Shown here one piece after another: positions 7,284 to 30,256 of a stretch of 64,000 nt of DNA. The stretch comes from Octopus vulgaris (Eukaryota): the NCBI GenBank assembly GCA_951406725.2, contig OX597828.1:31682001-31746000 (forward strand), read 5' to 3'. The notes under the pieces were generated by a model, which had not been told where the DNA came from, did no database searches, and saw nothing but the letters and a program-made list of their open reading frames with translations. How positions within the stretch are numbered: the first letter of the stretch is position 1; each line of letters starts with the position of its first letter. The translations under genes were made by a program, and so were the position numbers.

Positions 7284-7337
<54 letters not shown>

Positions 7338-7537
7338 TAATGATAAATATCAAAGTGAGTTATATACAGTAGCGGTAACACATTGTGACGTATTTTTGCC
7401 ATTTCTATATGGCTAACCCTTAAGGGGGTATGCTACTGTAGTTTTTAGCCCCAGGAGGACACACTCCTCCAGCTGGCCATAGACACACTTTCTGTGTCCT
7501 GTCAGTATTTGCAAAGGGAAGTCATCCTTCCCGTCTT

Positions 7538-7607
7538 CAACTTATGATACACACGGACTCGAGTTTCGATGTATTGACCTCTCGTCAGCGTGTGACAATC
7601 ATAGTTG
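7538..7607 (-). ncRNA. Type I hammerhead ribozyme, copy 1
   Basis: Minus strand reads caactatgat-tgt-CACACG-CTGACGA-GAGG-tcaata-CATC-GAAA-CTCGAG-TC^CGTGTG-t-atcataagttg. It has an intact CUGANGA/GAAA/GUC core, a 6-bp stem I with a bulged extension, stem II, and a palindromic stem III. Predicted cleavage is between 7556 and 7555. Confidence 0.92.
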
Positions 7608-7890
7608 TCGGCGAGAATTAGATTTCCTTCACAAATACTTATACTTTTTCCAGCGTCCACTGTCGCTGATATTGAAAAAGTGAAATCAAACAATGATAAA
7701 TATCAAAGTGAGTTATATACAGTAGCGGTAACACATTGTGACGTATTTTTGCCATTTCTATATGGCTAACCCTTAAGGGGGTATGCTACTGTAGTTTTTA
7801 GCCCCAGGAGGACACACTCCTCCAGCTGGCCATAGACACACTTTCTGTGTCCTGTCAGTATTTGCAAAGGGAAGTCATCCTTCCCGTCTT

Positions 7891-7960
7891 CAACTTATGA
7901 TACACACGGACTCGAGTTTCGATGTATTGACCTCTCGTCAGCGTGTGACAATCATAGTTG
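7891..7960 (-). ncRNA. Type I hammerhead ribozyme, copy 2
   Basis: Identical to copy 1. Confidence 0.92.
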
Positions 7961-8242
7961 TCGGCGAGAATTAGATTTCCTTCACAAATACTTATACTTT
8001 TTCCAGCGTCCACTGTCGCTGATATTGAAAAAGTGAAATCAAACAATGATAAATATCAAAGTGAGTTATATACAGTAGCGGTAACACATTGTGACGTATT
8101 TTTGCCATTTCTATATGGCTAACCCTTAAGGGGGATGCTACTGTAGTTTTTAGCCCCAGGAGGACACACTCCTCCAGCTGGCCATAGACACACTTTCTGT
8201 GTCCTGTCAGTATTTGCAAAGGGAAGTCATCCTTCCCGTCTT

Positions 8243-8312
8243 CAACTTATGATATACACGGACTCGAGTTTCGATGTATTGACCTCTCGTCAGCGTGTGA
8301 CAATCATAGTTG
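8243..8312 (-). ncRNA. Type I hammerhead ribozyme, copy 3
   Basis: As copy 1, except C>T at 8255 removes the outer pair of proximal stem I. Confidence 0.9.
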
Positions 8313-8594
8313 TCGGCGAGAATTAGATTTCCTTCACAAATACTTATACTTTTTCCAGCGTCCACTGTCGCTGATATTGAAAAAGTGAAATCAAACAATG
8401 ATAAATATCAAAGTGAGTTATATACAGTAGCGGTAACACATTGTGACGTATTTTTGCCATTTCTATATGGCTAACCCTTAAGGGGGATGCTACTGTAGTT
8501 TTTAGCCCCAGGAGGACACACTCCTCCAGCTGGCCATAGACACACTTTCTGTGTCCTGTCAGTATTTGCAAAGGGAAGTCATCCTTCCCGTCTT

Positions 8595-8664
8595 CAACTT
8601 ATGATATACACGGACTCGAGTTTCGATGTATTGACCTCTCGTCAGCGTGTGACAATCATAGTTG
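8595..8664 (-). ncRNA. Type I hammerhead ribozyme, copy 4
   Basis: As copy 3, with the same variant at 8607. Confidence 0.9.
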
Positions 8665-8946
8665 TCGGCGAGAATTAGATTTCCTTCACAAATACTTATA
8701 CTTTTTCCAGCGTCCACTGTCGCTGATATTGAAAAAGTGAAATCAAACAATGATAAATATCAAAGTGAGTTATATACAGTAGCGGTAACACATTGTGACG
8801 TATTTTTGCCATTTCTATATGGCTAACCCTTAAGGGGGATGCTACTGTAGTTTTTAGCCCCAGGAGGACACACTCCTCCAGCTGGCCATAGACACACTTT
8901 CTGTGTCCTGTCAGTATTTGCAAAGGGAAGTCATCCTTCCCGTCTT

Positions 8947-9016
8947 CAACTTATGATACACACGGACTCGAGTTTCGATGTATTGACCTCTCGTCAGCGT
9001 GTGACAATCATAGTTG
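8947..9016 (-). ncRNA. Type I hammerhead ribozyme, copy 5
   Basis: Identical to copy 1. Confidence 0.92.
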
Positions 9017-9299
9017 TCGGCGAGAATTAGATTTCCTTCACAAATACTTATACTTTTTCCAGCGTCCACTGTCGCTGATATTGAAAAAGTGAAATCAAAC
9101 AATGATAAATATCAAAGTGAGTTATATACAGTAGCGGTAACACATTGTGACGTATTTTTGCCATTTCTATATGGCTAACCCTTAAGGGGGGATGCTACTG
9201 TAGTTTTTAGCCCCAGGAGGACACACTCCTCCAGCTGGCCATAGACACACTTTCTGTGTCCTGTCAGTATTTGCAAAGGGAAGTCATCCTTCCCGTCTT

Positions 9300-9369
9300 C
9301 AACTTATGATACACACGGACTCGAGTTTCGATGTATTGACCTCTCGTCAGCGTGTGACAATCATAGTTG
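9300..9369 (-). ncRNA. Type I hammerhead ribozyme, copy 6
   Basis: Identical to copy 1. Confidence 0.92.
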
Positions 9370-9651
9370 TCGGCGAGAATTAGATTTCCTTCACAAATAC
9401 TTATACTTTTTCCAGCGTCCACTGTCGCTGATATTGAAAAAGTGAAATCAAACAATGATAAATATCAAAGTGAGTTATATACAGTAGCGGTAACACATTG
9501 TGACGTATTTTTGCCATTTCTATATGGCTAACCCTTAAGGGGGATGCTACTGTAGTTTTTAGCCCCAGGAGGACACACTCCTCCAGCTGGCCATAGACAC
9601 ACTTTCTGTGTCCTGTCAGTATATGCAAAGGGAAGTCATCCTTCCCGTCTT

Positions 9652-9721
9652 CAACTTATGATACACACGGACTCGAGTTTCGATGTATTGACCTCTCGTC
9701 AGCGTGTGACAATCATAGTTG
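9652..9721 (-). ncRNA. Type I hammerhead ribozyme, copy 7
   Basis: Identical to copy 1. Confidence 0.92.
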
Positions 9722-9759
9722 TCGGCGAGAATTAGATTTCCTTCACAAATACTTATACT

Positions 9760-10041
<282 letters not shown>

Positions 10042-10915: not shown

Positions 10916-11509
10916 AAAGAAATGTACGACGCATTAGATAACAATAATTTGTATGCATTTCCTGATTATAACAATAAATGTTCATAACTGGAGATTATTT
11001 TCACAATTGCTGACCTGAAATTATCAAAACATTTTCACCGATTACTCAAATTTAAGAAATATGGTGAATTGTGGATTGTAATACATTATTTAAAAAGAGT
11101 GAGAAAATGAGTGCATGTATTCGCACAGTTCGTCAGGTTATATACGATGAGATGAAATTTAAATCAGCGGGTGTTATATTGCATTATCGTGCAGATCCTG
11201 TCATGTTCAAGTAAAACGTAAATTAAATTGGATAAAATATAAAATTTATTCTATAGCAAATATGTTGTATGCATGTCAGTATGTATGTATATATGTATGT
11301 AAGTATGTATGTATGTATTATGTATGTATAGATAAACAGATAGATCGAGAGAAAGCCAGAGAGACAGACAGATAAAGCGATAGATATAGATATACGGCTA
11401 TTTGTATATTTGTATCTTTCTCTTTCACTCTATTTATCGCTTTATATATGTATATTATATAAATATTATCTCTCTCTGTATGCACGTTTTTATGTATGTA
11501 AATGTTGTT

Positions 11510-11556
11510 AACACTACGTTTCGGCTGATATACCCTCCAGTCTTCATCAGGTGTGT
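11510..11556 (-). ncRNA. Minimal PLE-type hammerhead ribozyme motif
   Basis: Minus strand reads ACAC-CTGATGA-a-GACTGG-agggtata-TCAGCC-GAAAC-GTA^GTGT. Core is intact, stem I is 4 bp, stem II has one mismatch, and stem III is the ACGT palindrome. Confidence 0.6.
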
Positions 11557-11602
11557 TGGGGAAATTTTGAACCCGGGTTCTCATTCCTAAGGTAGTTTTC
11601 GA

Positions 11603-12308: not shown

Positions 12309-14516
12309 TATGTTTGACTTTTGCTTTATATTTGTACAAGTTGGCTCCAAGTCTCACCCAGAGACCTCACGAGACAACAGGGTTGGAAGTTCATGTTGTT
12401 GTTATGCCTAGTGTGCCATATATTTGGGGGGTCGGGGTGTTGTACTAATGAATGTCTAAAAAAATTTTTTTTTTTTTTTTTAAACCGAAAATTATGTTTG
12501 TTTTAGAAAGTATTTTGCGTAGGATATGAGCAGTTCCTATGAGCACTATCTTTTGAATTTCTGCCATTTTTGGGTTTCCTGGTATCTGAGTTAGGTAGCT
12601 ATCTGCCCCTTTTGCTATCATTCCCAGGGCACCTATGGCAACAGGTATTGTTTTAGTCTTCAGCTTCCACATTTTGCTGATTTCTATTTCAAGATCTTTA
12701 TACTTGCTCAGTTTTTGGTAGGTCTTGACAGATACGTTTATATCGATTGAGACAGTCATATCAATGAGGAGGCATGTTCTTTGTTTGAAGTCTTTCAATA
12801 TGATGTCTGGCCTATTTGCATCTATCTTTCTGTCAGTTTGAATGGCGAAGTTCCAGAGGAGTGAGATGTGGTCATTTTCAAGCACTGGGGGTGGTTTGTG
12901 TTCCCACCAGTTTTTTTCATGGGGCAAATCCAGGTTTTTACAGATTACCCAGTGAATATATTGTGCAGCTCTATCGTGCCTGTTGAGATATTCTGTAGGC
13001 GCTAGAAGACTGCACTTGGAGACCACATGGTCAATGGTTTCATTTTGTGGCTTGCATACACGACACGTTGGACTGCTTCTGATCTTTAATATGTTGGCCT
13101 GGTAGTTTCTTGTTGGTAGGCATTTATCTTGAGCTGCTATGATAAACCCCTCTGTTTCAGATTTTAAGCCAGAGGCCATTAGCCATTGATGGGTCAGGGC
13201 TTTGTCAACATCTGCATTATTTGCTCTCTTTGGGTATTTGCCATAGAGAGGTTTTTCTTGCCATTTATCATTCAGAATATCTAAGGCCGCAGATTTAGCA
13301 CGGGTTTTCATGCGCTTAGCTTTTTCTGTGCCTGTTTCTTGTATGTCTATCTCTAATTCCGAAATTTGTTGTATTCGGAATTCACTTAGATATTCCTTTG
13401 CCTGTTTTGTTACTGAGTATGATGCTTTCTTGTTTTCATGTTTTGAGACAAGTTTTAACATCCAGTCCTCAGAGTTTTTCAGGTAGGTGTCTAGGCCAAT
13501 TGTAACAATCTTCATTGTTATTGCCAGTTGTAAAAGTCCACGGCCTCCCTCTTTTCTCGGCAGATAAAGTCGTTCTGTATCTGCCTTAGGGTGGTGCATT
13601 CTATGCATTGTCAACAGTTTTTGTATTTTTCTGTCAAGATTACATATTTCAGTAATTGACCAGTTAACGATACTGAAACTGTAAGTCACGACTGGTATGG
13701 CTAATGCATTGATCGCTTCGATCCTGTTTCTCGCATTCAGCTCTGTCTTGAGCATTGCTCTTACTCTGCGATAGCATTCTCTCCTATCCTTTCCTTCATC
13801 TCTGAATGCCTTATTCCTTCTCCTTCAATTACCCCTAGATACTTGTAGTTCTCTGCTGGGTCTAATTCTTTTATGACATTCTGCTGGTCAAGGTTAACGT
13901 TAGATGTTTCTGTCATTTTTCCTTTGATAAAGGTAGCTTTTGCGCATTTATCGAGGCCAAATTGCATTCTGATGTCATCACTGAATTGTTTGACAATCGC
14001 TAGTAAGCCCTTGAGTTGTTGGTCATTTTTTGCAAAGAGCTTTAAATCATCCATGTAAATGAGATGATTTATATTTTCATCAAACATTTTATATCCGTAC
14101 TGCGCATCATTGAGCAGTTTTGAGAGAGGTATTAAGGCTAAACAGAAGAGATGCGGTGATAGTGAGTCACCCTGGAAAATGCCACATGAAATTTTTACAT
14201 CACCAGCATTTAGAGATTCATTGTCACTGTTCAAAGTTAGTGTGGTTCTCCATGATCTCATACTTACAGACAAAAAGTTTCGCAGAGCAGGTGCTATCTT
14301 ATACATTTCTAGGCATTTATTAATCCAGCTATGTGGTAGGCTATCAAAAGCCTTTTTATAGTCTATCCAGGGTATTTATAAGTTTTTGTGTCGTTTGTGA
14401 CAATCTTCTAAGATCATCTTATTGATGAGTAGTTGATCTTTACAACCGTAGGATCCACGTTTACATCCTTTCTGTTCATTAGGGAATATGCTGCTGTCTG
14501 TCAAAAAAATTATAGG

Positions 14517-27834: not shown

Positions 27835-29530
27835 CTATTATAGGTTTGGGCCATTTTTGGCCCAGGCCATGTCTAACTTAATAGTACCACCTGGTGAAGT
27901 CTTTCAAGTCAGAATTTGGGCACTATGGCCCACTCAAGTAGTGAGTTATTGTTTACAGAGACATATCCGGGTGTAGGAGGTTTATCCGGGATTACTTGAT
28001 GGAAACTGTCCAAACACTTCTTGAACATTATAGGGTGTGTTTCTGTTTTAATGTGTTTTTGTGTAATGTTAAAGAGAGTTGGGCCAATTGAGGTGAAATA
28101 ATTGTGCCGTATTGTTGTTATATGATGAGAGTGCGATTTCTGTTGTGTGCGGATGGCACGGGGCCCAAGCCTTGGATGTACCTTAAAGGTGATGCCAACA
28201 TCATTTGGGCAATGCTGATGGAATATTTTCCACATCATGCAGATGATGTAGCGTTCACGGCGACGTTGGGGAGAATAAAGTTTTATCTTTTTTCTAGTCG
28301 ACCCCAATAGTCGAGACCTGTCTTGCCATCTATCTTTTTTGTGATTGACCTTTGAGGTGCTTCATCTTTTATGATACTTTGTTTTGTGTGGGGAGACCAC
28401 AGTGGACAACAGTATTCAAGGTGGGGTCGGGCAAAAGTGGAGAAGAGAAGGATGATGGTGTGGATATCTCTCGACTGGATAGTTGAGAATCCAGGAACAC
28501 ATTCTGCGGGCCATGTCAACTTTGGTGTTTATATGAGTGGCCCAGCTTATGCTGTTGTCCACAATTACTCCCAAGTCTCTGATGTTGTTGGATGCCACGC
28601 GAGTTTCACCTTAAAGAAGGGAGTATGGAAGTTTTAGGGCATCCTCTTTTCCAAAGTGGATTAACTCGAATTTATCCTCGTTCAGCAGCATATTGTTCTT
28701 TTCTGCCCATTGGATAACAGCCAGTAGATCTTACTGAAGGCATGTCCGGTCACTCGCCTCAATTATGACCTTCTGGAGCTTGGAATCATCTGCAAAGATT
28801 TTTATGTTACTGTGTTTGATGATGTCATTAAAGTCATTAATGTAGACGATGAAAAGAAGTGGGCCCAGCACAGTGCCCTGCGGAACGCCACTACTGACTT
28901 TGGCTGGGGTTGATTTTACTCCTTGAGATCTGTCTGTCAGGAAACACTTGATCCATTTCAGTAACGTTCCAGAGACACCAATGTTGGATAGTTTTTTCAA
29001 TAGGATCTTGTGATCAACCCTGTCGAAGGCCTTCCTGAAATCAAGGTAGATGACATCGGTGTTGGAGCCCTCACCCAAAGCTCTCAAAATATCATCAAAG
29101 TGATGCAGGAGCTGCGTTAGGCAGTCCCTTCCATTACGGAACCCATGTTGGTTAGAGATCAGCCGTCTGTTGCTTTCCAGAAATTGGATTATTCGAGATC
29201 TCACCACCCTCTCAAATACCTTGATGATATGACAGGTGAGTGAGATCGGACGGTAGTTCACTGCAAGGGACTTGTTTCCTTTTTTGAAAACTGTGACAAC
29301 AGACTGGGACAGAAAGTCTTTAGGAATATAGCCAGCATCCAGTGAGTTTCTCCACAGATTAGCAAGGGGAGATGCAAGTTGGTGTCGACACACCTTCAGG
29401 ACACAAGCAGGGAACCTATCGGGGCCTACTGCTGAATTCGGTTTTATTTCGTTTATCGCCGCTAAGACATCAGAGGCACCAAACGTTATGCCCGATATAG
29501 TGTGTTGGGGGTTGACATCACTGATACAGC
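27835..29530 (-). mobile_element. 5'-truncated CR1/L2-group (Crack/Daphne-like) LINE with RT pseudogene
   Basis: RT motifs GPDRFP, NYRPISLT, QHGFR, YLDFRKAFDRV, GVPQGTVLGPLLF and FADD. C-terminal DLGVIVD, RPHLEYCCPLWSP, LYSPQRRRERY, GPTLFN and NSLLEW. Stop at 28731 plus frameshifts. The 3' end abuts (TA)n. Confidence 0.92.
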
Positions 29531-30256
29531 CCAGTATATATACATACACCCATATACGCATATGTATGTTTGAATATATATACTCATATACGCATTTATA
29601 TATGTGCATATATGTATATATATACACATACTCATATATGCATAGGTATGTTTGTATAAATAAATAAATTAATATATATGTGTGTGTATGCGTGTGGGAT
29701 GAGACGGTTGAACATTATGCATGTATCCTGTTCCTTTACCAGGTATTGATCGCTGTAGGGATATAGGAGAATACATTTCATTTCGGAGCAGTCCACTGAG
29801 ACTGAACGTAAAACCTTTCGGTTTCGTCCTCTTTGTGTTTAGCCCCTTGTGGGTGGTAAAGAAATAGGTTTCAATGCGAGCTGGAATGGAAGTACAATAA
29901 AAATTATATCAAGTTACTTCCTAAGAATAAGAGAAACACAGGAATACTATGATTTATGATCCGTGTGAATAGTTATATGTATATGCACGCGCACACACAC
30001 AACCATACACACACACGCACATGTATGTCAATATTTCACTGGAAGAAATATAAGCGAAAACCGTTTTACGTTATTCAAAAACGCAGACATAAATTGAAAT
30101 TTAACTGCAGAAGATGATGCTGTTGTTTGTTTTTTTGTTTTTTTGCTATAATTGCTTTGCAGATTTTAATGATTGAAATAAAGGGAATGTGTCTTAACGA
30201 AGCTGTGAATTTCCTCAAATTTCATTGCATGACTAACAGTACCTACTCTGGTGCGA

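Follow-up and report, generated by a model that had tools for sequence, protein, structure and literature searches.

The window analysed here is a 64,000-nt stretch of Octopus vulgaris contig OX597828.1 (positions 31,682,001 to 31,746,000 of the forward strand), and all coordinates below refer to it. It contains an array of 6.9 tandem units of 352/353 bp with seven hammerhead motifs on the minus strand (main arm, 7339–9759), adjoined by a shorter copy of the same unit in inverted orientation (inverted arm, plus strand, 9761–9932). The arms lie in a (TA)n target, which flanks them on the left (7287–7338) and on the right (9933–10040). With monomer numbering that starts at the cleavage site, the main arm has its outer 3′ end at nt 217 (a long end, position 7339), and the inverted arm spans nt 1–172, stops at a short end (9932) and carries the private variants of the array. 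Units of the main arm differ from each other by 0.38% substitution, and this arm is the longest single arm among 41 loci examined. The array has no open reading frame of 150 amino acids, nor the reverse transcriptase (RT) and GIY-YIG frame of an autonomous Penelope-like element (PLE). A search of the element for a tRNA gene or tRNA-like head found none, and matches to microRNA families were set aside as inverted-repeat and (TA)n artefacts, far under their cut-offs. The predicted monomer circle is 63% paired, and the GC content of the element is under 45%.

The motif in these units has the form of a type I hammerhead ribozyme with the cleavage triplet GUC. In the first copy, which reads from 7607 to 7538 on the minus strand (core 7550–7594), the 5′ strand of helix I consists of an outer segment CAACU-AUGAU (7607–7598), a UGU bulge (7595–7597) and an inner segment CACACG (7594–7589), followed by the core CUGACGA (7588–7582). 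Helix II pairs GAGG with CAUC (7581–7578 and 7571–7568), with a G·A mismatch at base 7570, and is closed by the loop II UCAAUA (7577–7572). The 3′ side then reads GAA(A), the helix III palindrome ACUCGAGU (7557–7564), C17 (7556), CGUGUG, U and AUCAU-A-AGUUG, so that helix I extends through a UGU/U internal loop into two further helices. Cleavage is predicted 3′ of C17 from the hammerhead consensus and the alignment to RF00163, and the conserved bases make the UGU bulge the likely partner of loop II in a tertiary contact. The palindrome would form 2 bp and a UCGA loop in a monomer, or an 8-bp duplex between two copies. C17 of the seven cores lies at 7556, 7909, 8261, 8613, 8965, 9318 and 9670; in copies 3 and 4 (8261 and 8613), the 6-bp helix I has lost its outermost pair through a shared G>A change. 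The palindromic stem III, the stem I extended through UGU/U and the loop II UCAAUA that the first-pass annotation had described are thus all present, on the minus strand.

Support for the assignment comes from the complete set of core features (CUGACGA, GAAA, GUC and a 6-bp helix I), from 11 matches to a loose core pattern in the 64-kb window, where 1.9 were expected, and from a folding z of −2.84 for the 75-nt motif. Against RF00163, copies in the window score 30 bits (E 3e-05 at 7550–7594) and family-type copies 32.2 bits (E about 3–5e-05 overall), in both cases under the gathering score of 34 bits, which is a curation cut-off and not a functional criterion. No RF00163 match in the window reached the gathering score, and two loci of older subfamilies gave no match at E ≤ 0.1. 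The genome-wide RF00163 search scored 73 candidates only and returned six other motifs, and is unusable as a census.

A tight hammerhead pattern has at least 612 matches in the 2.8-Gb assembly, including 407 exact copies with a fully paired helix II (GAGG/CCUC). The copies are organized in arrays of one to seven units dispersed on many contigs. This is the layout described for non-LTR retrozymes: dispersed non-coding tandem repeats of 150–450 bp with a type I hammerhead in each unit and no LTR, PBS or PPT (PMC7229834). Judged by sequence, the array is a young, multi-copy, non-coding tandem element that forms a new family within this known class. The literature searched, which leaves many journals outside its coverage, holds no description of the family.

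The G·A mismatch in helix II is a mutation private to the window array and no conserved design element. All seven assembly matches to the G·A form are units of this array, and at base 7570 the family allele accounts for at least 99% of the depth, and the variant for at most 1%, in 8/8 sequencing runs. It is one among about five private changes of the founding template of the array, and all seven copies have it because they descended from that one template. The first-pass annotation was right that the mismatch is fixed in all seven copies; as a conserved feature it is ruled out by the genome counts (seven matches against 407 paired copies) and by the read depth at 7570. Folding predictions give helix II alone no stable fold with G·A (0.0 versus −4.4 kcal/mol for the family form) and make the catalytic fold 6.6 kcal/mol costlier. 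The mismatch is thus predicted to weaken helix II, which probably slows the seven copies and makes them more dependent on a dimer than is usual in the family.

The same helix varies among older subfamilies, which are about 72–93% identical. At base pair 10.1–11.1, 26 of 39 aligned copies have C·A and 4 have U·U, in both cases in older subfamilies. C·A, C·U or U·U was seen at the older-subfamily loci L132–L171 and L022–L040, and the canonical G-C is confined to the youngest subfamily. A weak helix II is thus nothing recent in this lineage, and since subfamilies with C·A or U·U have spread, rapid cleavage may be dispensable for mobility.

For covariation, we aligned 39 copies that represent several subfamilies; rows were chosen partly by helix III allele, and columns fixed by the search patterns are uninformative. 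Pairing is found in 91.7% of the cells and two-sided change in 31 cells; neither value is reached in any of 500 shuffles, and slid controls pair 16–53%. Covariation across genomic copies, which the first-pass annotation had proposed as a check, is present in the helix I extension (G-C/G·U/A-U), in helix II (G-C/A-U) and in helix III. The third pair of helix III is C-G in 16 rows, U-A in 13 and U·G in 10, with none unpaired, these being counts and not frequencies in a set picked by allele. Because of this choice of rows and the relatedness of the copies, the pattern represents about two substitution events on a compensatory path, not many independent ones.

Three helix III loops are common, UCGA, UCGG and CCGG, and all are self-complementary in RNA, as are 36 of the 256 possible tetraloops when G·U is allowed. 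Hand counts of 42 copies with a loop not starting with U, taken without picking, gave 24 CCGG, 6 CpG-decay products of CCGG and 7 non-pairing CCGA/CUGA; for loops that start with U and do not end in A, UCGG makes up 88 among the 100 listed of 143. Self-complementarity of helix III therefore looks selected, given the covariation of UCGA, UCGG and CCGG across subfamilies. The pattern fits a double hammerhead; a monomer with a 2-nt loop closed by the third pair would fit it as well. Outside the positions fixed by search patterns, the first U of the bulge (38/39), its purine (39/39), the opposing U (38/39) and the first U and last A of loop II (39/39) are conserved, and we read these bases as a loop 1/loop 2 tertiary contact. 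A short helix III with a palindromic loop and conserved loop 1/2 nucleotides are the traits that PMC4209133 gives for canonical metazoan type I hammerheads.

We determined the ends of the insertions in 41 loci, the youngest and not a random set (40 from the best genome matches and the pattern list, plus the window). Among their 70 outer 3′ ends, 67 fall into two groups, 36 at nt 160–180 (31 of them at 174) and 31 at nt 212–225, and (TA)n adjoins 68. Two-armed insertions have one short and one long end in 27 of 29 cases, as in the window, and in none of the 29 are both ends short or both long. The two ends of the element (short at ~174, long at ~217–220) are 43–46 nt apart. A further 59, mostly older loci gave 42 short, 25 long and 17 other ends among 84, with 13 of 25 two-armed loci having one of each kind; BLAST ends are noisy in this set and unreliable at 70–90% identity. 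An inverted arm that starts at the cleavage site was considered as a rule and rejected, being true of the window array and a few loci; elsewhere the inversion junctions are scattered along the unit.

Penelope-like elements are described as leaving an inverted truncated copy, a tail of 30–40 bp at one end only and a bias toward (TA)n (PMC8557442). The octopus element has all three traits, with an inverted truncated copy, a tail at one end and a microsatellite target. The genome also has a PLE family of young age, in which intact frames of 781 aa contain RT and GIY-YIG domains and copies end in (TA)n at two places ~38 nt apart; 2/2 two-armed copies have one end of each kind. The tail of the element (43–46 nt) is longer than that of this family (about 38 nt). 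Members at L112–L128 (e.g., L114:81-4772) have many such frames intact, overlapped from upstream by another of up to 479 aa, and the 3′ region of the family contains a degenerate hammerhead look-alike near its end. Within 1.8 kb downstream of the 781-aa frame, 17 of 18 PLE copies have no canonical hammerhead core, and the sole match lies beyond the (TA)n end. The 3′ regions in 65 GIY-YIG loci (45 + 20), sampled from about 6,100 candidates, have no sequence in common with the element, so we infer the enzyme at the level of its class. Matches within the PLE loci L117 and L129 proved to be independent neighbouring insertions and not a homologous terminus. Two hammerheads 3.25 kb apart on C2 (L021) were considered as the pLTRs of an autonomous partner and discarded, as there is no RT frame between them. 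Overall, judging by its insertion ends, the family was likely inserted by the enzymes of Penelope-like retrotransposons.

Variants shared among units allowed us to evaluate the template of each insertion. Within an arm, 303 of 390 comparisons showed sharing of rare alleles; the figures were 170 of 243 when units of the two arms were compared and 3718 of 33427 when units of different loci were. At eight common sites, 31 of the 41 loci are uniform and 10 are mosaic. All units of one insertion thus derive from one source, usually one haplotype. Uniform loci fit a single circle copied by the rolling-circle route, and also a uniform multimer as the template. At another locus (L080:1368-3562), the unit variants, read from the 3′ end, follow one order that is mirrored in both arms, for which a multimeric template is needed and a monomer circle does not suffice. 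The ends lie 174 or 217 nt past a cleavage site and the arms cross several such sites, so the template would be a circle or an uncleaved multimer. Runs that we guessed to be RNA, none of them recorded as RNA, yielded family contigs and one closed loop of 383 nt (353 + 30), in which circle and tandem, RNA and DNA, and the two strands are indistinguishable.

Folding predictions favor pairing between copies, under nearest-neighbour models that ignore core and tertiary contacts. The 8-mer self-duplex is predicted at −10.7 kcal/mol and the hairpin at +2.9 kcal/mol (hairpin pairing probability 0.0), in line with the earlier description of stem III as weak in a hairpin and able to form an 8-bp duplex between copies. 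For the window and family sequences alike, a two-copy transcript is predicted to be 15.3 kcal/mol more stable as a double hammerhead than as two single ones. The minimum free energy fold of a single motif (−24.4 kcal/mol) is non-catalytic, and the catalytic fold is predicted at −17.4 (family) or −10.8 kcal/mol (window). Helix I comprises 16 bp (−15.4 kcal/mol predicted). Helix III has 2 bp and a tetraloop, and not the 0–1 bp of the obligate dimer hammerheads (newt, Amex1 and the minimal PLE type).

According to PMC7229834, the monomer of a coral hammerhead cleaves at 0.8/min and that of mussel at 0.1/min, and the axolotl Amex2 monomer is 22% cleaved in 1 h, its dimer performing much better. 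Most invertebrate type I hammerheads with a 2-bp helix III and tetraloop are described as cleaving efficiently as monomers (PMC7229834, PMC7761336). Among Xenopus dimer elements, 8/9 are reported to give no product at all (bioRxiv 10.64898/2026.07.22.740005). By analogy with the related invertebrate ribozymes, the family is most likely dimer-enhanced yet monomer-competent, and we place this before strict dimer dependence. The dimer idea behind the suggestion of the first-pass annotation that cleavage may be efficient only in multimers is physically sound by the folding energies and is backed by the covariation of helix III; the strict dependence on a dimer is not established.

The explanation that we favour, with a probability of roughly 0.7, is a type I hammerhead in a non-LTR retrozyme that is dimer-enhanced and mobilised by a PLE. 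It ties the observed sequence, copy numbers, end structure, haplotype sharing and covariation to a cleavage reaction, circles, a dimer effect and a PLE enzyme that we infer. Predicted self-cleavage after GUC would likely release monomers of 353 nt, which are likely circularised, and the RNA would likely be reverse-transcribed into (TA)n sites by the enzymes of a Penelope-like element. Through the palindromic helix III, neighbouring copies most likely form a double hammerhead, by which multimers made by read-through would be cleaved faster, and a family-type monomer is most likely moderately active through contact of the UGU bulge with loop II. The window array was founded by a single template bearing G·A. 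Somewhat more tentatively, yet still on balance in favour, we suggest that PLE machinery copies the family, given the fixed ends, one per arm, the (TA)n targets and the derivation of both arms from one RNA, and that the helix III alleles reflect selection in vivo for the double hammerhead.

Strict dimer dependence would mean a nearly inactive monomer, cleavage as a double hammerhead in multimers and protected circles, as in newt and axolotl retrozymes. The unstable helix III hairpin and favoured double fold agree with such a system, and so do palindromy kept via a G·U intermediate, a central CG kept apart from CpG-type decay and a long-standing weak helix II pair (C·A, U·U) like that of Amex2, which combines a weak monomer with a strong dimer. 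The model itself is stated in PMC4209133, and the Xenopus elements without product point in the same direction. However, the invertebrate helix III of 2 bp and a tetraloop is of the type reported as monomer-active (PMC7229834, PMC7761336), the covariation of the third pair fits a monomer with a 2-nt loop too, and metazoan retrozyme circles are said to be probably protected by some other mechanism (PMC7229834). A 16-bp helix I could also fold while transcription is still 350 nt short of the next copy, and would then have to swap strands. We consider strict dependence unlikely; it is likelier for the window array, whose G·A helix II has no predicted stable fold, than for the family. A related reading concerns the window locus alone and is compatible with the favoured explanation for the family: the seven copies may be crippled by G·A, two of them also by the helix I change, and the array would be a dead end from a mutant template, no longer processed. 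This is possible, if doubtful. The predicted loss of helix II and the costlier catalytic fold suggest it, as do the absence of a daughter locus of the variant from the assembly and its low depth at 7570 in every run; yet the copies retain their core nucleotides, G10.1-C11.1 and the bases of the tertiary contact, and the mutant template was itself mobilised and gave the long main arm.

It is improbable that the array arose in place, by a satellite-type expansion (unequal crossing-over or slippage) of one inserted unit resembling a PLE terminus. Cross-arm allele sharing of 0.70, versus 0.11 between loci, argues against this. So do the private alleles of the array in its inverted arm, a sharing seen in six other loci, and the many dispersed young insertions that have fixed ends and tandem units in either arm. 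What recommends local expansion is that amplification of an inserted terminus is discussed in bioRxiv 10.64898/2026.07.22.740005 and that the adjacent copies 3 and 4, with their shared change, may be a local duplication.

The element can be compared with several known systems. Most metazoan hammerheads are described as type I, with a 6-bp helix I, a 4-bp helix II, a conserved loop contact and a helix III of 1–2 bp with a palindromic loop, and two copies can fold as an active dimer, which is thought to permit cleavage of multimers and avoid cleavage in monomer circles (PMC4209133). Palindromic stem/loop III was also noted for repeat-type hammerheads (PMC3088659), and the RF00163 type I consensus likewise has an 8-nt palindromic helix III, with the loop CAAAUA. 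The combination of a palindromic helix III with a helix I/II loop contact, which the first-pass annotation had singled out, is thus the canonical metazoan type I design in PMC4209133; the earlier finding restates a published description and is not surprising. Its proposal that dimer-only cleavage protects circles is plausible and is a hypothesis already published there. With RF00163 and Schistosoma SM-alpha, the octopus motif shares the 6-bp helix I, the 4-bp helix II, a 6-nt loop II (Y...A), the 2-bp helix III with palindromic loop and a U-purine bulge in helix I. It differs from them in its score of 30–32 bits, the private G·A of the array and the C·A or U·U at 10.1–11.1 in older subfamilies. 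Axolotl HHR_Amex2 also has a 2-bp helix III with a tetraloop and a weakened helix II, and works better as a dimer; Amex1 and newt have a 1-bp helix III, unlike the 2 bp found here, and helix II of the young family is fully paired.

At the level of the repeat, the family resembles the metazoan non-LTR retrozymes described in PMC7229834 (coral and mussel, ~350–390 bp; axolotl, 330/350 bp) in its ~350-bp non-coding tandem unit, low GC (under 45%), single canonical type I hammerhead in each unit, dispersed copies numbering in the hundreds and highly paired predicted circle. The family differs from the retrozymes as described there in that its insertions into (TA)n have inverted arms and bimodal ends at fixed places. 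Inverted arms, two alternative 3′ ends (one per arm) and (TA)n targets are instead features of Penelope-like elements, which have a C-terminal GIY-YIG domain and a pLTR (PMC8557442). Unlike these, the family has no open reading frame, no similarity to the 65 sampled PLE loci and a tail of 43–46 nt, and its hammerhead is the full canonical form where that of Penelope-like elements is minimal. PLEs have been named as the likely mobilisers of retrozymes from co-occurrence and pLTR homology in frogs (PMC7229834, PMC7761336, bioRxiv 10.64898/2026.07.22.740005). In the retrozyme papers examined, no such signature of tail and inversion is described for a retrozyme. The insertion junctions of the octopus family carry this PLE signature directly, and so provide evidence on the open question of the retrozyme mobiliser. 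If PLE machinery does copy the family, the element would offer a 353-nt minimal substrate for testing the mobiliser and the formation of PLE tails. Its natural variants of helix II (G-C, U·U, C·A, G·A) and helix III (UCGA, UCGG, CCGG) form a series for kinetics of monomer versus dimer.

Other mobile elements and hammerheads were identified in the window and the surveyed loci. An unrelated, minimal PLE-like hammerhead-like motif (11505–11560, minus strand) sits just beyond a (TAA)n run and has a relative in L180; it has a short helix I, CUGAUGA and a helix II with a 10-nt loop, followed by GAAA, A-CG-U and A17. Two overlapping non-LTR retrotransposon frames of 204 and 459 aa (12445–14375, minus strand), flanked by (TAA)n runs, contain a CCHC-like stretch together with motifs of RT and of a restriction-like endonuclease. 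By its motifs, this retrotransposon is presumably R4/Dong-like. The broken RT frames at 27909–29714 (minus strand) belong to another LINE, presumably CR1/L2-like by its motifs. Another PLE family (L129:4305, L176, L179, L185 and L191) has a hammerhead-like motif with the helix III A-GUAC-U (1 bp and a palindromic tetraloop), and several copies have CCGAAGA replacing CUGAnGA. A further hammerhead family, of 108 nt and notable for its very long helix II (L082, L083 and L086), passes the Rfam cut-off, and its L083 member has the helix III palindrome AC-GAUC-GU.
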